A stretch of 9,150 nt of DNA from a virus (Duplodnaviria > Heunggongvirae > Uroviricota > Caudoviricetes): IMG/VR virus record IMGVR_UViG_2698536574_000022; one strand, given 5' to 3'. The notes under the pieces are model-generated. The model did not search any database, was not told the DNA's origin, and was given only the letters and a program-made list of their open reading frames with translations. Shown here one piece after another: positions 1-6,609 of the stretch (within the stretch, counting starts at the first letter, position 1; each line of letters starts with the position of its first letter). The position numbers and the translations under genes were made by a program.

Positions 1-912
1 AATATCGTGAGATTTTGTCCCCATTCCGCCCTGACCATGACCAATCAGGTGATGGGGATCGTCGGCTGGCTTACCACAACACGCACACGGCTGTGTCTTC
101 ACCCAGCGTGTGTATTTCTCGTTAACCCAGCGGCGACGTTTAGGTCGTTTCATGAAAGATTCCGGAGGCTCAGGATCAACGGCAATGCTGACCACCGTCT
201 TTTCCTGTGGTGGGTTCTGTTGCTGGTGGGCGTGAGGCAGCGGCGCAAGATTTTTTGTGCGCTGTTTCAGTATGCTGATGGCGGTCTGCTCTCCCGGTAC
301 GATGTCGCTTTCGCGGTACAAGGGGCGGATTTTTTCCGCACGTAACCCCAGAGAACGACGTAATACTGCCTCCGGAAGCGCGTCCGCCACCTGATTGCAG
401 ACCGCCCACCAGGATAATTCAGCCAGAGATAATTCACGCTCCTGCGTACCGCTTATTGCGTGACCGATGACGTCAATCATCCATGCTGACAGGTTTTGAT
501 GAGCAAGTTGCTCGAGTGATTCGGATGTCTGGTCACGCAGCTGGTTGTCGCAGTGCCAGCACAACACCATTGCGCCGGTACCATAACGGTGAATGACGGT
601 TTCGCTGTGATGATAATCGCCGTGTGGCCACTGGCAGGATTTAATATGGCGCAACAGCCAGTCAGACAATGCACCAGCACCACCAGCAGCACGAATCACC
701 CGTGCGTTACTGAAAAACGGCAGCAATGTTTTGTCTTCCACTAGCGGCTGGTGAACGGCAGGAACAACCCCGGACGGCAGATTACGCATGCTTTTCGGTT
801 CCGGCTCCACCAGTACCCGGGTATTGTGGAATACCGGCATGGATTCACGGCCCGGCTTAACGATCACCAGCCCGAGTTCCGGTACCAGAACAGGTCGAAG
901 TAATACCCGCAC
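1..912 (-). CDS. Prophage protein with two Cys/His-rich HNH-like motifs (YdfU/DUF968-like); C-terminus runs off the window edge
   Basis: Absent from the supplied ORF track. Manual minus-strand translation in the frame with codons ending at 912 shows no stop from 987 down to 1. First in-frame start is GTG at 912-910, one nt after the TAA (914-916) of the upstream gene and preceded by GGAGGT (rc of 916-921). Translation begins VRVLLRPVLVPELGLVIVKPGRESMPVFHNTRVLVEPEPK and contains CQWPHGDYHHSETVIHRYGTGAMVLCWHCDNQ and QPCACCGKPADDPHHLIGHGQGGMGTKSHD. Family assignment is from memory, not a search. Confidence 0.7.
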   Translation of the reverse strand, partial: MRVLLRPVLVPELGLVIVKPGRESMPVFHNTRVLVEPEPKSMRNLPSGVVPAVHQPLVEDKTLLPFFSNARVIRAAGGAGALSDWLLRHIKSCQWPHGDYHHSETVIHRYGTGAMVLCWHCDNQLRDQTSESLEQLAHQNLSAWMIDVIGHAISGTQERELSLAELSWWAVCNQVADALPEAVLRRSLGLRAEKIRPLYRESDIVPGEQTAISILKQRTKNLAPLPHAHQQQNPPQEKTVVSIAVDPEPPESFMKRPKRRRWVNEKYTRWVKTQPCACCGKPADDPHHLIGHGQGGMGTKSHDI

Positions 913-913
913 G

Positions 914-1192
914 TTACCTCCAGATGCGTTGCTGGAATGTGCGGGACGGACGCGGTGGGCGCTCGGAGTAAGGAAGCCTGACGGAGATTATCCAGTGACG
1001 ATAATCGAGGCTGAGGGCTTTCTTAATCTCGTATCCGTGTCTGCGGTCGCACTGAATTAGCCACTCGGCCTGTTCTTCAGTGCATGGGGGATGCTGGAAC
1101 CAGTCAGATTTGAAAGTGCGGTAACGCCGCCCGTGCCTGCTGGCAAAGACGGCAGAATCATCAGAATTGTGTAATTTGGTATCGTGCGCCAT
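914..1192 (-). CDS. Hypothetical small prophage protein (92 aa), between hok and the Cys/His-rich gene
   Basis: Part of track ORF 914..1321; I place the start at internal ATG 1192-1190 (MAHDTKLHNSDDSAVFASRHGRRYRTFKSDW...) because the first 43 codons of the track ORF overlap the terminator hairpin at 1261-1290. Stop TAA at 914-916 abuts the next gene's GTG. No recognisable domain. Confidence 0.45.
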   Translation of the reverse strand: MAHDTKLHNSDDSAVFASRHGRRYRTFKSDWFQHPPCTEEQAEWLIQCDRRHGYEIKKALSLDYRHWIISVRLPYSERPPRPSRTFQQRIWR

Positions 1193-1260
1193 CGGTTGTC
1201 TCTGCTGGCGCAGCAGGTGCCAGTTGTTCAGGCTGGCGTGCGAATTGTAAACCAGAATGC

Positions 1261-1290
1261 TAGGAAAAAACAAAACCCGCCGAAGCGGGT
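1261..1290 (-). terminator. Rho-independent terminator downstream of hok
   Basis: Hairpin ACCCGC-CGAA-GCGGGT at 1275-1290; on the minus strand it is followed by TTTGTTTTTTCC (rc of 1261-1274). Lies about 70 nt past the hok stop. Confidence 0.6.
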
Positions 1291-1358
1291 TAAGTGCGGG
1301 TGCGTTGAGGATGCCTGACACATCAGAGGTGGCGAGGGATTCTCCCCCGCCTGGTCTC

Positions 1359-1514
1359 TTACTCCTCAGGTTCGTAAGCTGTGAAGACAGCGACCTCCGT
1401 CTGGCCGGTTCGGATTCGTACCTCGCAGAGGTCTTTCCTCGTTACCAGTGCCGTCACTATGACGGTTAAACAGATGACGATCAGGGCGATTAACATCGCC
1501 TTTTGCTGCTTCAT
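1359..1514 (-). CDS. hokD: Hok/Gef family type I toxin (small membrane-depolarising peptide)
   Basis: Translation from ATG 1514-1512: MKQQKAMLIALIVICLTVIVTALVTRKDLCEVRIRTGQTEVAVFTAYEPEE (51 aa), with single TM helix and the conserved RKxLCE...E/A..AYE signature of Hok/Gef. It matches my recollection of E. coli HokD/RelF, which is not verified by search. SD AAGGAG 9 nt upstream. The track ORF (1359..1571) adds 19 in-frame N-terminal codons that I consider unlikely to be translated. Confidence 0.85.
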   Translation of the reverse strand: MKQQKAMLIALIVICLTVIVTALVTRKDLCEVRIRTGQTEVAVFTAYEPEE

Positions 1515-1725
1515 AGCCTGCTTCTCCTTGCCTTTCGGCACGTAAGAGGCTAACCTAGATTTGCCGTTCATAGATTGAGCCTCAGATTAATGTTAAGCGT
1601 CTTGCAGGACGCGTAATGTTAACTGGGGCTTTTCTCTATCTGCCTTTGGTGTTCATGCCTGAGACAGATAGCCTCAAGCACCCGCAGCCATTCTACTTAA
1701 CTCCCGTTACCTCGCCAATATGAAA

Positions 1726-1815
1726 TCAGTCAGAAAGGCGATCCATAAGAACAACAGCAAGGCAATAAATTGCCATTACAGCAGCAATAGCCAGCGCACA
1801 TTTGAGAACCAGCAC
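1726..1815 (-). CDS. Candidate small hydrophobic peptide (29 aa), possible type I toxin-like or small membrane protein
   Basis: Not in the ORF track (below size cutoff). Consensus SD AGGAGG (rc of 1821-1826), 5-nt spacer, GTG at 1815-1813, TGA at 1726-1728. Translation (M)LVLKCALAIAAVMAIYCLAVVLMDRLSD: one hydrophobic helix with a charged C-terminal tail. No homolog recalled. Confidence 0.3.
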   Translation of the reverse strand: MLVLKCALAIAAVMAIYCLAVVLMDRLSD

Positions 1816-2138
1816 CACAACCTCCTGTATTGGACGTACACCAGTCCTGATAAATATGAGGCTGTCTCGTCAGTGATTCAATACAACTATTGGGTATAGT
1901 TTCTGTGATTTTGTTCTGTAGAAATGGAACATAATAACCTGTCACCACCAGCACTTCTTTAAATACGCCAAGTCCGACGCAAGCTAACCTTCTAGCCCGC
2001 TTTGAGCGAAGAACGGACTGAGTAATTCAGGCCGTTAGCGACACTATGACATCATTAGCAACCAACTAGGAGTTGGTAATAGATGAGTTAATTAATTGAT
2101 TAAAAACCGACGATTTTACTAGATTACGGGAAGAAGAA

Positions 2139-2156
2139 AGGCCGCTGGTACGGCCT
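2139..2156 (-). terminator. Weak intrinsic terminator after the small coiled-coil gene
   Basis: Hairpin AGGCCG-CTGGTA-CGGCCT at 2139-2156; minus-strand downstream sequence is TTCTTCTTCCC (pyrimidine-rich, imperfect U-tract). Sits 26 nt past the stop of the 2182..2379 ORF. Confidence 0.4.
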
Positions 2157-2181
2157 CCCAGAGACTAGTCTATTGTTATGC

Positions 2182-2379
2182 TTAGAAACGCTTTTCTATC
2201 TCTTTTTCTCTTTCGTTTATTGCATCGTCAATGATTTTTTTTGCTGAATTAATTTGTGGTGTTTTTTCTGGTAATACATCTTCAAGATCTTTGGCAATTT
2301 TCTTTAATTTATCGATTTCTTTAGTTAAATCAGTTACAGATTTATCCGCTATTGACTTTGTCATTTTTCCATATTCCAT
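2182..2379 (-). CDS. Hypothetical small K/E-rich coiled-coil protein (65 aa)
   Basis: Track ORF MEYGKMTKSIADKSVTDLTKEIDKLKKIAKDLEDVLPEKTPQINSAKKIIDDAINEREKEIEKRF. AT-rich codon usage like the rest of the insert, followed by its own hairpin. No strong SD; alternative start at ATG 2364. Confidence 0.45.
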   Translation of the reverse strand: MEYGKMTKSIADKSVTDLTKEIDKLKKIAKDLEDVLPEKTPQINSAKKIIDDAINEREKEIEKRF

Positions 2380-2552
2380 TCAATTTATTTATCAATCAGT
2401 TACCCGTAAACCTTATCATGGATTCCAATTATCGACAGCTGGGATTTTTACTTTCTTGATCTGCCCCAGGCGAATGACATATCCCCATTAACCAATGTCC
2501 GCTCCTAGCACTTAGTAGACATTAATAGATTGTAAGCGTTCCCGTCATGTAG

Positions 2553-2933
2553 CGGTCACCGATTGGTGATGAATTGAAGCGGATCATTGATGAAAGTCGC
2601 AATAACGTGGCCAGCCCATTTATCGTTCACCAGATCCCGGAACGGCAGGTTAAACGCAGCAAAGAAGTTTCTCATCCCACTCAAGTTGCACCAGACTATT
2701 TGAGTCGGTCGTTTTCAGCTACGCGTGACAAGCTGGGTTTATATGACAAACGGCCGATGGATGAAAGGCCAACCTTTCACGAAATTCGCGCCTTAGCAGC
2801 ACATCTTTTTGATCAGCAGGGCATCGATCCACAAGGACGAATGGCACACAGCGATGCGAAATCAACTAAAATCTACACGCAAAACCATATCGACTGGGTT
2901 GTAGTTCCACATGGAGAAATTAAAGCCAGCTAG
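2553..2933 (+). pseudogene. Lambda-type tyrosine integrase, 3' fragment only (C-terminal ~125 codons)
   Basis: Track ORF 2574..2933 starts at TTG; the frame is open back to a TAG at 2550-2552. C-terminus PTFHEIRALAAHLFDQQGIDPQGRMAHSDAKSTKIYTQNHIDWVVVPHGEIKAS aligns with the lambda Int C-terminus as I recall it (PTFHELRSLSARLYEKQ...LLGHKSDTMASQY...DKIEIK), including the catalytic His and Tyr positions. All three frames upstream of 2550 hit stops within about 20 codons, so the N-terminal ~230 codons of a full integrase are absent. Confidence 0.65.
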
Positions 2934-3031
2934 CACCAAGTAAGGCATAGAATTTTATTAACCAAGGAGCATATGACCAGTAATTAATTCTTACCGGAAA
3001 GTTAGCCCTGCTAAAATTAATATTAACAAAT

Positions 3032-3063
3032 AAAAAAATAGGGGCAAATATTTATATTTGCCC
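3032..3063 (-). terminator. Rho-independent terminator of the nucleotidyltransferase-effector operon
   Basis: 9-bp stem GGGCAAATA (3042-3050) / TATTTGCCC (3055-3063), loop TTTA; on the minus strand it is followed by CTATTTTTTTATTTG (rc of 3027-3041). Located 12 nt past the effector stop codon. Confidence 0.65.
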
Positions 3064-3074
3064 TCGCAACATAT

Positions 3075-3656
3075 TTATCTTCTTTTCAGTTCCTTGGGAA
3101 GAAAAGCATCTATTTCTTCTTCAGAAAATGTTAAATCTTCTTTGTTTTTTAATGCGTCCTGTGCTTTTTTATAAGCTTCAAATGTTGTACTAGGAGAGCC
3201 TGAATACACTGAATGTAAACTCTCGAGTAACGAATCCCGCTCTGACTGCAATTGCTCGATTGGTTTTTCACCCATTGCTAAGTCTGTAAGCAATGATAAA
3301 TACTTTTCTCGGATTAACCAGATCTCATTTGCAGCCTGCTTATGTTTTTGCGCCAACTCACCAAGGTCATAATCTTTGGTATAAGCGTTAAGAATGAGAA
3401 GCAGTGTTGAAACAACAATCCCAACCCCCGTGCCTACTTCACCCGCGCCGAAAAAAGTTGCTAGAAAGCCTCCAGTAGTTAAGGCGGAGAGAATTATTTG
3501 CCAAAACTTTATAGAAGATAGTCGAGATAGGAGAATGTCTGAGCATTTTTCATGCGTCTTATGTGAGTAAACGACCCGACCATAACACTCTCTGATCTGC
3601 CCTTCTAAAACCCTTCTAGATTCAGGTGTATCCTTAGTCTGGAAATGTTGATCCAT
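3075..3656 (-). CDS. Two-transmembrane effector, SLATT-like (predicted pore-forming or membrane-disrupting partner of the nucleotidyltransferase)
   Basis: Track ORF 3075..3713; preferred start ATG 3656-3654 with GGGAGA about 4 nt upstream, giving MDQHFQTKDTPESRRVLEGQIRECYGRVVYSHKTHEKCSDILLSRLSSIKFWQIILSALTTGGFLATFFGAGEVGTGVGIVVSTLLLILNAYTKDYD... (193 aa). Layout is an N-terminal helix, two hydrophobic segments (WQIILSALTTGGFLATFF and GVGIVVSTLLLILNAY) and a roughly 95-aa helical charged C-terminal region. Overlaps the upstream gene by 23 nt (80 nt if ATG 3713 is used). Confidence 0.7.
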   Translation of the reverse strand: MDQHFQTKDTPESRRVLEGQIRECYGRVVYSHKTHEKCSDILLSRLSSIKFWQIILSALTTGGFLATFFGAGEVGTGVGIVVSTLLLILNAYTKDYDLGELAQKHKQAANEIWLIREKYLSLLTDLAMGEKPIEQLQSERDSLLESLHSVYSGSPSTTFEAYKKAQDALKNKEDLTFSEEEIDAFLPKELKRR

Positions 3657-4515
3657 AAATCTCCCGCCATTTTTGCTTAGCCGACCATTCGCGTTTTGGG
3701 GTCGCCATTTCATGCTCTATAGCTTCGAGTGAAATGTTATAGCACCGTTTTGCTTTATATTGGAAAAGCCCTTTACCATAGACATACTGACCACTTCCTG
3801 GCGCTTTCCAATACTCCTTACTCGTATCTTGATCAGCCATCCATTTGAAGAAATCACGACTCATGAAATCGTAGTAAAGATACGACTTATCTCTATGCGC
3901 CCAATTTTCAATGAATTGATACGCAAGCGTATCAATGAGTAAACCACTTATAGGTACATCCCATTTACGCTTCCAAGCTCTTGCCATTCTACAAAGTTGC
4001 ACCAAATTGTTATTGGTAATGTTATTTCTTAACCTCATTGCAGAAATTTCTGGCTTTGGATTTGTAATCCTCCAACGGCCACCACCGTTCGCATCAGGAA
4101 ATGTGTAACTATCACTAACATTGAGGAAAGCTGGAACGACTTCAAATGTAATTCCATCATTGAACGGTACAAGGATCACTTGACCGTCACCTCTAATACT
4201 AGTGGTAGCATAGGTTTTTTCAATAGATCTCTTAACCGCTTGAAGCAATGCTGACTGCCCATTTCCTAAGTAGCTATTGTATTTTTGATACTCGGAATAT
4301 GGTAGCTGAAAAATCATATCCAGATCGCTCAAGCCTTGCGTAGCTGTGTTCCGACCATATGATCCAACGTAGAGACTATGAGAAGTATCAGAACTGCTAT
4401 CCCAAAAATCCGTATTTAAACGCTTCGTTATATTCCTATATCTAGTTGAAATTGTTCCACCATCTTTTACAGTAAGATTGGAGCAAAATCCGCAAAACCA
4501 CTCAGCTAAACCCAT
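3634..4515 (-). CDS. CD-NTase / SMODS-family nucleotidyltransferase (cGAS/DncV-like; predicted cyclic nucleotide second-messenger synthase)
   Basis: Track ORF 3634..4521 starts at TTG; preferred start ATG 4515-4513 with AAGGA about 8 nt upstream. Translation MGLAEWFCGFCSNLTVKDGGTISTRYRNITKRL...YVGSYGRNTATQGLSDLDMIF...GQVILVPFNDGITFEVVPAF...RWRITNP... shows the Pol-beta-type GS-x11-DxD motif plus a downstream acidic residue in an h-h-F-D-G-hh-EVVP context. About 293 aa, typical of minimal CD-NTases. Assignment is by motif recognition, not a search. Confidence 0.8.
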   Translation of the reverse strand: MGLAEWFCGFCSNLTVKDGGTISTRYRNITKRLNTDFWDSSSDTSHSLYVGSYGRNTATQGLSDLDMIFQLPYSEYQKYNSYLGNGQSALLQAVKRSIEKTYATTSIRGDGQVILVPFNDGITFEVVPAFLNVSDSYTFPDANGGGRWRITNPKPEISAMRLRNNITNNNLVQLCRMARAWKRKWDVPISGLLIDTLAYQFIENWAHRDKSYLYYDFMSRDFFKWMADQDTSKEYWKAPGSGQYVYGKGLFQYKAKRCYNISLEAIEHEMATPKREWSAKQKWREIYGSTFPD

Positions 4516-4661
4516 GCTCAATTCCTTTTCTAAAATCTAATGAAAAATTCAAGGGCGCATGTTCCATGCATCATTGATAACTTTTTTCAGTCAGCTAGAG
4601 CAACATAATTGATACTAACTAGCTGTTTCTTCAAGTGAGTAACCTACTTTAGCATCAAGGT

Positions 4662-4690
4662 ATTATACCTACCAAGCATGGGGAGAAACC
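4662..4690 (-). promoter_or_regulatory. Candidate promoter for the NTase-effector operon
   Basis: Perfect -10 TATAAT on the minus strand (rc of 4662-4667), about 150 nt upstream of the NTase ATG; the -35 is poor (GGTTTC/TGGTTT at 17-18 nt spacing). Position and hexamer only. Confidence 0.3.
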
Positions 4691-4829
4691 ACCACTTAAG
4701 CCATTGAAGTATATAGAGCAGATTTTGTTGAAAAAGCACTGTTTGTCTATACATATGAATATGTGCTTTTAACCAGCAATAGCGCGGCTCTCAGCGTTTT
4801 ACAAGCAGTGTCATGGGGTGTCGGGGATC

Positions 4830-4857
4830 GGAAGTTCAAATCCTCTCGTGCGACCCA
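4830..4857 (+). other. tRNA 3'-end-like fragment (T-arm, acceptor 3' strand, CCA); possible integration-site (att) remnant
   Basis: GGAAG-TTCAAAT-CCTCT (4830-4846; T-loop consensus, stem with one A-C mismatch), then 7-nt CGTGCGA, discriminator C and CCA (4855-4857). No complementary 5' acceptor strand within 80 nt upstream, so this is not a complete tRNA. Confidence 0.35.
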
Positions 4858-4870
4858 AAAGATTATATAA

Positions 4871-4896
4871 ACCAGCCTGTTATTGCTGGTTTTTTA
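4871..4896 (+). terminator. Intrinsic terminator-like hairpin following the tRNA-like fragment
   Basis: ACCAGC-CTGTTATT-GCTGGT (4871-4890) followed by TTTTTTA on the + strand. An inverted copy of the stem sequence (AACCAGCAATA, 4771-4781) lies about 100 bp upstream. Confidence 0.45.
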
Positions 4897-5049
4897 TGCC
4901 TACCTTCCTGGTAGGGAAGCTATGGGGAATTACTGGGGAATCCCCCCCCTTTACCTGCTCCCATTAAACTAACATAGCACGATGTAAGCAACTTCCGCTT
5001 CTGGCACAAAGCGGACAACCACGCTAGCTCTACCCTGTGCCACAAAATG

Positions 5050-5508
5050 TCAATTTACATCTGAACTAATGCACTTTAATCTCGTCACTTCAAAAAAATA
5101 CCGAACATCCCCCTGATAAAACGACAATATCCGCTGCATAACTTCGCTTTTACGACACTCAGTACAAATTATATTATGACGCCTGTCGTAACGACGTATT
5201 TCTCCATCAGGTAATGACCAGATAAGGTCCGGATCAACCGCAGATGGTTTCTTCAGCTTTGCCCTTGAGAGCTTTTTACGGGCATTTTGCCAGTCCTTAC
5301 GCGCCTGTTCAGACGGGAATAACCCGTAACCAGAGTTGTATACATCGCCACTGGCAACCAGCTCTCTGGCCAGAACGCTCATCAGATATCTTGTTGCCCC
5401 AGTTTTAGCTTCCTGTTGTCGTAACGTCTCGCGCCCACTCTGGCGTACGAGTTCAAGAACCTGCCCTTTAATTTTTTCCCGCTCTTCTTGTGTAAAAACT
5501 TTTGCCAC
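5050..5508 (-). CDS. Hypothetical prophage protein (152 aa), distal gene of the replication-side operon
   Basis: Track ORF with GTG start at 5508-5506 preceded by consensus AGGAGG (rc of 5513-5518). Translation (M)AKVFTQEEREKIKGQVLELVRQSGRETLRQQ... No Walker motif (not a DnaC/P-type helicase loader) and no domain I can assign. Confidence 0.6.
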   Translation of the reverse strand: MAKVFTQEEREKIKGQVLELVRQSGRETLRQQEAKTGATRYLMSVLARELVASGDVYNSGYGLFPSEQARKDWQNARKKLSRAKLKKPSAVDPDLIWSLPDGEIRRYDRRHNIICTECRKSEVMQRILSFYQGDVRYFFEVTRLKCISSDVN

Positions 5509-6136: not shown

Positions 6137-6609
6137 AGTGTTTTGATCTTCTTGATCTGTATCTTTATCTGTATCTTTATCTGTCGTGACATGTGCGTGA
6201 CATTTCGTGACGCGCCGTGACAATCGCCATTTTGTTCCCGCTTTCTTTCCCTCTCTCGCTGCGCCCTCTTGCGCTCTGCAGGAGATTTTGCGGTTTGCGA
6301 AATATTGCCGTTGTCCTCTTTAAGCACCTGGCGTTTTTCCCATCCAGTGATTAAATCACCATCAAGTACCCGCCCCTGCATCGTCTGCAAAATTGAATCA
6401 ATTACCTCTTCTGTCACGTCGAGCGCACTTGCCAAATCTTCTGTCGTGACATCAATGTGACCTCGCGTGACATTTCGTGACGCGCTCACCAGGAGGTGGA
6501 TATACACTGCCATCACTGTTGCAATTGGCTGCCCTGACACCCTGGCAATTGTTCGCCACTTAGGGTCATTTGGCATGTCATGCCATAATCTGAGCCAAGC
6601 GTTAGCCAT
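6121..6609 (-). CDS. Replication initiator / replisome-organizer N-terminal domain protein (lambda O-like role); contains the iteron arrays
   Basis: Track ORF 6121..6615 starts at GTG; preferred ATG 6609-6607 with GAGGTG 3-4 nt upstream. N-terminus MANAWLRLWHDMPNDPKWRTIARVSGQPIATVMAVYIHLLVSAS resembles phage replisome-organizer N-terminal domains. The gene body contains two arrays of four phased GTGAC repeats, as the lambda O gene contains ori. Confidence 0.65.
   Translation of the reverse strand: MANAWLRLWHDMPNDPKWRTIARVSGQPIATVMAVYIHLLVSASRNVTRGHIDVTTEDLASALDVTEEVIDSILQTMQGRVLDGDLITGWEKRQVLKEDNGNISQTAKSPAERKRAQRERERKREQNGDCHGASRNVTHMSRQIKIQIKIQIKKIKTLWSMA
6155..6184. repeat. Tandem 12-bp repeat (ATCTGTATCTTT x 2.5) in an AT-rich stretch with two GATC sites
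   Basis: Direct reading: ATCTGTATCTTT at 6155-6166 and 6167-6178, then partial ATCTGT; GATC at 6145-6148 and 6154-6157. Encodes IKIQIKIQIK in one minus frame and TDKDTDKDTD in the overlapping frame. Confidence 0.8.
6186..6221. repeat. Iteron-like array A: four GTGAC motifs at 10-11 bp phasing
   Basis: GTGAC at 6186, 6197, 6207 and 6217, immediately adjacent to the AT-rich tandem repeat. The block CTGTCGTGACAT...GCGTGACATTTCGTGACGCGC (6181-6215) is duplicated at 6441-6485. Confidence 0.6.
6446..6481. repeat. Iteron-like array B: four GTGAC motifs at 10-11 bp phasing
   Basis: GTGAC at 6446, 6457, 6467 and 6477, plus an inverted copy (GTCAC) at 6414-6418. A near-duplicate of array A lying about 260 bp away inside the same gene. 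Confidence 0.6.

Follow-up and report, generated by a model that had tools for sequence, protein, structure and literature searches.

The window analyzed here is a 9,150-nucleotide stretch of DNA from the IMG/VR virus record IMGVR_UViG_2698536574_000022. It is 100% identical to E. coli chromosomes, for example those of DEC9B and AUSMDU00014361, and lies within the early part of a lambdoid prophage adjoining tRNA-Ser and mtfA. From left to right, the window contains hokD/sok, a 547-bp stretch of DNA, a fragment of an integrase gene on the plus strand, the SLATT_4 and SMODS genes on the minus strand, a tRNA-like site, and DUF977 with the replication genes, again on the minus strand. The tRNA-like site is found in a 530-bp gap upstream of SMODS, and its placement between a cargo operon and the resident prophage genes, made in the original prediction, was confirmed.

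The only RNA family identified by Rfam in the window was the full-length sok antitoxin RNA/hokD toxin locus at positions 1509-1683 of the minus strand (RF01794, 110 bits), which lies at the left edge of a cargo hotspot; none was found near the tRNA-like site either at the gathering score or at E values of up to 10. Clusters of direct repeats with the motif CGTGAC occur at 6180-6221 and 6440-6481, inside the replisome-organizer gene region, and are probably the origin iterons of the lambdoid prophage.

The cargo is an operon of two genes, both on the minus strand. Its first gene (3634-4521) encodes a SMODS nucleotidyltransferase, the oligonucleotide cyclase of CBASS (Pfam SMODS, E = 2e-50; PADLOC PDLC00786, E = 5e-144), and its second gene (3075-3713) encodes a SLATT_4 effector with two transmembrane segments (Pfam SLATT_4, E = 6e-74; PADLOC PDLC00696, E = 1e-84). 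PADLOC reads the pair as a CBASS cyclase with a 2TM effector. The operon is transcribed away from the tRNA-like site, which is described below as an attP. Homologues of the SMODS cyclase with 59 to 86% protein identity were found across very distant phyla (loci L009-L088), including Chloroflexota, Planctomycetota, Poribacteria, Nitrospirota, Cyanobacteria, and Bacteroidales. For a two-gene system, the CBASS composed of SMODS and a SLATT_4 2TM protein is unusually highly conserved and widely spread by horizontal transfer. In AUSMDU00014361 (NZ_CP045827.1; positions 18059-19272 of locus L001), a copy of IS1203 inside the SMODS gene splits the operon.

On the other side of the operon, the plus strand carries the 3' stub of a tyrosine integrase gene (2558-2933; last ~119 codons), recognized by BLASTP and DNA homology. 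Translation of 2574-2933 yields the last 119 residues of an integrase family. By BLASTP, the stub is 87% identical to amino acids 274 to 392 of the full-length, 392-amino-acid integrase of Enterobacter RIT637, which has an arm-binding domain of the lambda Int type (Pfam PF09003), and 69% identical to amino acids 274 to 390 of the 395-amino-acid integrase of coliphage Eeyore. DNA homology to three relatives starts abruptly at 2558/2559, and the N-terminal 70% of the int gene is therefore gone. The stub keeps the HxxR and catalytic tyrosine region, whereas ~270 N-terminal codons, and with them the domains for arm and core binding, are missing. In RefSeq, the stub is annotated as a recombinase that is incomplete and frameshifted. 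It reads toward the attP, and the two have the same order and orientation as int and attP in Eeyore.

The tRNA that the original prediction had left unassigned was found by blastn with positions 4765-4900 as the query. The segment 4810-4860 matched a tRNA-Pro gene in 5,426 of 5,426 complete E. coli genomes, with ~92% identity and an E value of about 2e-10, and because of this the resemblance to a tRNA is not due to chance. The matched gene lies between yejM and yejO (REL606, APEC O78) and is proL, encoding tRNA-Pro(GGG). Positions 4810-4857 of the plus strand align with the last 48 nt of the 77-nt proL gene and comprise, in order, the anticodon loop CATGGGGT with the anticodon GGG, the variable loop, the T arm, the 3' strand of the acceptor, and CCA. 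The sequence at 4830-4857, described originally as resembling the 3' third of a tRNA, is thus real and exactly placed as part of the proL 3' end, but the tRNA-derived segment is longer, since its 48 nt start at the anticodon loop.

Compared without gaps, 43 of the 48 positions are identical to proL; with gaps allowed, the alignment has 45 matches and two substitutions, plus two gaps of one base each. Four changes distinguish the core from proL. Two are G>A substitutions, at 4827 and at 4833, the second of which converts a G-C pair of the T stem to an A-C mismatch; in addition, one C is missing at 4851/4852, and C has replaced A at 4856. The site reads GGAAG (4830-4834), TTCAAAT (4835-4841), CCTCT (4842-4846), CGTGCGA (4847-4853), C (4854), and CCA (4855-4857). 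The 7-nt acceptor strand, discriminator C, and CCA had been spelled correctly from the sequence, but this arrangement is a by-product of the lost C and of the C that replaced A at 4856; sister copies of the surrounding DNA block keep the proL reading, CGTGCCG-A-CCA.

ARAGORN detected no tRNA and no tmRNA genes in the window, in agreement with the earlier remark that a 5' partner strand is missing; together with the negative Rfam result, this rules out a complete tRNA or tmRNA across the site. A degenerate full-length tRNA, in which TAGCGCG at 4780 would be the partner of the acceptor strand across a 78-nt span, was also considered. Its anticodon and D stem are absent, and it was rejected because the P arm, the DNA on the left of the core, bears no significant similarity to the 5' half of proL: in local alignments with six P arms, 13 to 42% of shuffled sequences scored as well. 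The core fragment alone folds no better than shuffled sequences (z = -0.6).

The core is followed on the plus strand by a hairpin with a T-run (4870-4895), whose arms are AACCAGC (4870-4876) and GCTGGTT (4885-4891) and whose run of six T residues occupies 4890-4895. This stem-loop, pointed out in the original prediction, is homologous to the terminator behind proL according to the alignment. It has a stem of 7 to 8 bp and an 8-nt loop, with a computed folding energy of -10.8 kcal/mol (z = -4.1; 0 of 200 shuffles were as good). On the minus strand, the energy is -11.3 kcal/mol, and a weaker T-rich tail follows. A simple consensus terminator scan did not flag 4870-4895. Judged by the sequence criteria for such elements, the hairpin and T-run constitute a predicted intrinsic (rho-independent) terminator, which may incidentally insulate transcription on either strand, providing at most some insulation. 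The minimum free energy fold of 4771-4900 is somewhat better than that of shuffles (z = -2.2). A riboswitch- or attenuator-like alternative seen in this fold, with 4771-4784 paired to the terminator's 3' arm, was considered and rejected: by eye, only 5 to 7 nt of complementarity are left in relatives, and the pairing simply repeats the 5' arm of the hairpin itself.

The DNA on both sides of the core is also related to phage attachment sites. The coliphages Eeyore (PP925821), Flotzy (PP925827), and Phi06_2987 (KM389287) matched positions 4792/4805-4895 in a database search and 4678-4895 when compared directly. In Eeyore and Flotzy, the integrase gene reads toward the matching segment and ends just upstream of it. 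We aligned eight sites: the window, the attPs of the three phages, three attRs of prophages integrated at proL (EC20-4B-2 and LD91-1, flanked by yejO, and Enterobacter RIT637, flanked by an MFS gene), and the attL of APEC O78, where proL has a prophage remnant downstream.

The left, or P, arm (4673-4809, plus strand) is present in the window, in the phage attPs, and in the attRs, with identities of 76% to the Eeyore attP and of 90%, 80.5%, and 77% to the attRs of EC20-4B-2, LD91-1, and RIT637, respectively. It is missing from the APEC O78 attL, which has the 5' half of the tRNA there. The motif ATGGGGAG at 4678-4685 is conserved and is found at the same place in Eeyore, where the P arm begins 3 nt after the int stop codon. 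Bases 4772-4796, which showed 25-nt matches to the lambdoid O gene/origin repeats (E = 0.1 to 1), belong to the conserved P arm in the eight-site alignment; a relic of such repeats was rejected, and the matches were taken as chance.

The right, or P', arm (4897-4952, plus strand) is present in the window, in the phage attPs, and in the attL and is absent from the attRs. It carries three tandem GGGGAA-type repeats, TAGGGAAG (4912-4919), ATGGGGAA (4922-4929), and CTGGGGAA (4933-4940), followed by a poly-C tract (4942-4949). The repeats are spaced 10 to 11 nt apart, or one helical turn. A triple repeat occurs at the matching place in Eeyore (5122, 5133, and 5143) and also in Flotzy, Phi06_2987, and the APEC O78 attL, and is lacking in the three attRs, which have bacterial flanks there. 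Judging from their position and spacing and by analogy with lambda, ATGGGGAG and the GGGGAA repeats are putative arm-type integrase sites. Across the whole window, GGGGAA-type 8-mers are modestly enriched, with 16 found and 9 expected (16 were reached in 4 of 200 shuffles). The poly-C tract varies from 7 to 9 C residues among copies of a block that is otherwise 99.5% identical.

Because the window has both arms, its site has the P-core-P' format of an unrecombined attP. The terminator further supports this format: the form CCAGCC..GGCTGG is common to the window, Eeyore, Flotzy, Phi06_2987, and the APEC O78 attL, whereas the native terminator of proL is CCAACC..GGTTGG. With only the last 119 codons of int remaining, the site is detached from a working integrase; the adjacent gene is clearly a member of the family but nonfunctional, and we therefore refer to the site as an orphan, or relic, attP. 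Taken together, the sequence comparisons make it very probable that positions 4673-4952 are a complete, orphaned attP of a lambda-type tyrosine integrase targeting proL, imported with the cargo and the int stub. A literature search for a described proL attP returned nothing specific.

The cargo occupies a defined place relative to this attP. The 1,740 bp that carry SLATT and SMODS lie precisely between the int stop codon (2933) and the start of the P arm (4673). In Eeyore, this slot is empty. The proL prophages of EC20-4B-2 and LD91-1 have there an unrelated gene of 283 to 289 codons in the same orientation (4092-4943 of locus L006 and 4585-5454 of locus L005, both on the minus strand). The 283-amino-acid product from EC20-4B-2 had no Pfam match, and no relationship to SMODS was found; the slot gene is a candidate for a further accessory or defense gene. 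In Enterobacter sp. RIT637, the order is full-length int, SLATT, SMODS, P arm, an exact 3' fragment of proL, and the chromosomal MFS and Mqo genes. This locus is colinear with the window over 2559-4552 (78.5% identity) and 4674-4897 (77%), and its sequence suggests a donor-type arrangement.

The right and left limits of the imported DNA were drawn from comparisons with other prophages. Backbone homology with a prophage carrying AbiH ends at 2010 and resumes at 4994; it resumes at 4953 in some prophages and at about 4994 in most. Since other prophages carry varied cargo at the same position (DUF5677, DUF4209, QueH, methyltransferases, and others), the hokD-DUF977 interval is a cargo hotspot. 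A hairpin, TCCGCTT-CTGGCAC-AAGCGGA (4994-5015), is situated exactly at the right boundary between cargo and backbone; it is kept in the AbiH-carrying variant (L008) and could serve the hotspot as a terminator or boundary element.

The block at about 2003-5012 occurs at an identity of at least 99.4% in about 48 to 51 E. coli genomes. It contains the 547-bp stretch at 2011-2557, the int stub, SLATT/SMODS, and the attP. The 547-bp stretch, which adjoins the int breakpoint at 2558 and has an open reading frame of 60 to 65 amino acids (2182-2379, minus strand; no Pfam match), was found only together with the block (48 genomes, all at 99% identity or higher). In PSS-08-2 (L007), an IS3 element truncates the block inside the int stub. 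In strains of the AR435 and CE0007a types, the 3.0-kb block is 99.5% identical and its flanks are entirely different: it follows the lambdoid tail-fiber genes J, lom, stf, and tfa'. Its copies span 2003-5012 of the window, 402-3410 of locus L092, and 17966-21111 of locus L094 (AR435). At the junctions, the two contexts share only TGAGCGAA (2003-2010) and TCCGCTTCTGGCACA (about 4994-5012), which suggests, from the sequences compared, that the block was exchanged at short boundary sequences.

These observations are consistent with a model in which an ~3-kb block composed of the attP, the int stub, and the CBASS operon would have been copied as a unit by phage-phage recombination. Its source would be the int-attP region of a proL phage and its destination the hokD-DUF977 hotspot of a lambdoid prophage. 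The defense operon would be the selected cargo, with the attP and its tRNA-like core carried along.

At an active site of this kind, the lambda-type Int occupies the core at the anticodon stem-loop as well as the arm-type repeats on either side of it, and then exchanges strands with proL. Integration gives proL a new 3' part, made up of the phage-borne 48 nt and the phage terminator, so that the gene stays functional, and the displaced native fragment of proL ends up at attR. In an active phage, the phage-type hairpin would thus be the element that terminates the proL gene rebuilt by integration. The exact proL core is kept in 7 of the 7 relatives compared, and only the block found in the window deviates. 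Among copies of the block, the core of AR435 and CE0007a has two G>A changes, that of UID2309220033 adds A>C at 4856, and the window copy adds the C deletion, giving a series of two, three, and four changes; the poly-C tract and the hairpin also vary. This variation is what relaxed selection would look like in the sequence. In a proL gene rebuilt through the core of the window, the T stem would be expected to be damaged and the acceptor strand shifted. The accumulation of mutations among copies argues that the attP is most likely an inert hitchhiker.

Three other readings of the site were weighed against that of an inert, imported attP. The original prediction was a probable att-site scar. The site did turn out to be the attachment site of a tRNA-targeting tyrosine integrase, but it is a whole attP with phage arms on both flanks, not a scar of cargo insertion or a partial duplicate. 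A scar would mean that a tRNA-Pro gene borne by the phage was the target at which the cargo entered by site-specific integration and that 4830-4857 is the displaced partial duplicate at an attL or attR. The tRNA fragment does lie near the boundary of cargo and backbone, and beyond the cargo, at its other end, there is a fragment of an integrase gene. The attP of tRNA-targeting tyrosine integrases carries the 3' part of the tRNA and regenerates the gene on integration. The displaced tRNA 3' fragment is left at the island end, where it marks the far end of the integrated element (Islander, PMC4383910); tRNA gene fragments are also discussed in PMC9897764. For one class of these integrases, the usual identity block likewise starts at the anticodon loop and runs to the 3' end, but the displaced fragments mark junctions of the attR type, with a regenerated tRNA gene at the other end of the element, whereas the site in the window is an unrecombined attP without a partner. 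A hybrid site needs one target flank, and here the core has a phage arm on each side, an arrangement shared with the unrecombined Eeyore attP; the terminator is the phage allele, not that of native proL. The direct repeat that had been expected on the far side of the insert did not materialize: the window contains neither a complete tRNA nor another tRNA-Pro piece, and the fragment is a single copy in the 40 kb of prophage around it. The cargo block runs about 100 to 140 bp past the site, to 4952-4993, and variants of the hotspot that lack the block contain no tRNA-Pro. Since the block extends past the site and no second piece exists in these 40 kb, the site arrived inside the cargo and is not an arrival junction. 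A scar is, on this evidence, very unlikely. Extremely improbable is a functional tRNA-like small RNA, transcribed up to the terminator and working with, or regulating, the divergent SMODS/SLATT operon. The site does lie in the gap upstream of SMODS, it ends in a good hairpin with a T-run, and the fold of 4771-4900 surpasses that of shuffles by the small degree given above. Against this, ARAGORN and Rfam found neither a cloverleaf nor a family, the isolated fragment folds no better than shuffles, its T stem is broken by mutation, and the long-range pairing of the minimum free energy fold shrinks in relatives. Eeyore, Flotzy, EC20-4B-2, and LD91-1 carry the same sequence but no SMODS/SLATT, and of the 80 homologous SMODS loci, from many phyla, 78 have no tRNA-Pro piece; the piece was rejected as a part of the SMODS/SLATT system on the latter count.

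The third reading accepts the attP and differs in what it can still do. A still-active attP would be acted on in trans by the Eeyore-family integrase of a proL phage, whether co-resident or infecting, and it would recombine with proL, with attL or attR, or with the attP of the incoming phage. The overlap in the anticodon loop is intact, as are the P arm and the three P' repeats, and all of these are collinear with their counterparts in functional phage attPs; with the overlap region and all arm repeats preserved, an integrase in trans might therefore still use the site. The occurrence of the 3-kb block with identical ends in two unrelated prophage contexts also speaks for this reading. The shared block, however, ends outside the att site, and recombination at attP therefore does not explain how the block moved. 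The core drifts among copies as expected without selection, and integration through the core of the window would rebuild a damaged proL. DNA homologues of the integrase at 80 to 90% identity are present in only about 5 other genomes. In 2013C-4991, which carries the module, the query matched only two places, read as the module and proL itself, and there is therefore probably no proL prophage in that genome. We consider continued activity of the attP quite unlikely. There is likewise only a small chance that the orphan attP is recombination proficient with an Eeyore-family integrase in trans and acts as a secondary landing or exchange site in lambdoid prophages. If it were, proL phages and lambdoid prophages could swap the adjacent CBASS cargo, and chromosome rearrangements between the site and proL would be possible.

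The preferred reading, an imported and decaying attP, places the site among known systems. In the attP of phage lambda, the heterobivalent Int binds the arm-type sites P1, P2, and P'1-3 as well as the core. The site in the window similarly has its core between arms with repeated motifs, with three tandem P' repeats at about one helical turn; the full-length relative, the RIT637 integrase, has the lambda Int arm-binding domain; and the gene order in AR435, with tail fibers, attP, and int, mirrors that of lambda. The two differ in that the core of the window lies in a tRNA gene and that of lambda between gal and bio, and in the sequence of the arm motif. Williams reportedly described in 2002 an identity block from the anticodon loop to the 3' end as one of the classic sublocations for tRNA-targeting tyrosine integrases.

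The closest known counterparts are the attPs of Eeyore, Flotzy, and Phi06_2987 and the prophage att sites at proL in EC20-4B-2, LD91-1, APEC O78, and RIT637. They share the 48-nt proL core and, collectively, the P arm, the phage-type terminator, and the triple GGGGAA P' repeat, and these phages and prophages have an integrase gene that is homologous to the stub and reads toward the site. In the window, by comparison, int is cut to 119 codons, the core has four mutations, the CBASS operon fills the space that separates int from the P arm, and the site is inside an unrelated lambdoid prophage. The site is an Eeyore-type proL attP, orphaned and decaying, and belongs to a known kind; it is an ordinary relic of phage mosaicism and not a new RNA.

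The value of this assignment lies mostly in annotation, as it accounts for the unannotated 530-bp gap beside a defense operon and warns that a tRNA-like 3' end is not to be taken for a new RNA or an insertion junction. An orphan proL attP leaves current understanding unchallenged. For the proL-targeting phages, the gap between the int stop codon and the P arm is a cargo slot, and the cargo of this slot can move to other prophages along with the att site and the int stub.
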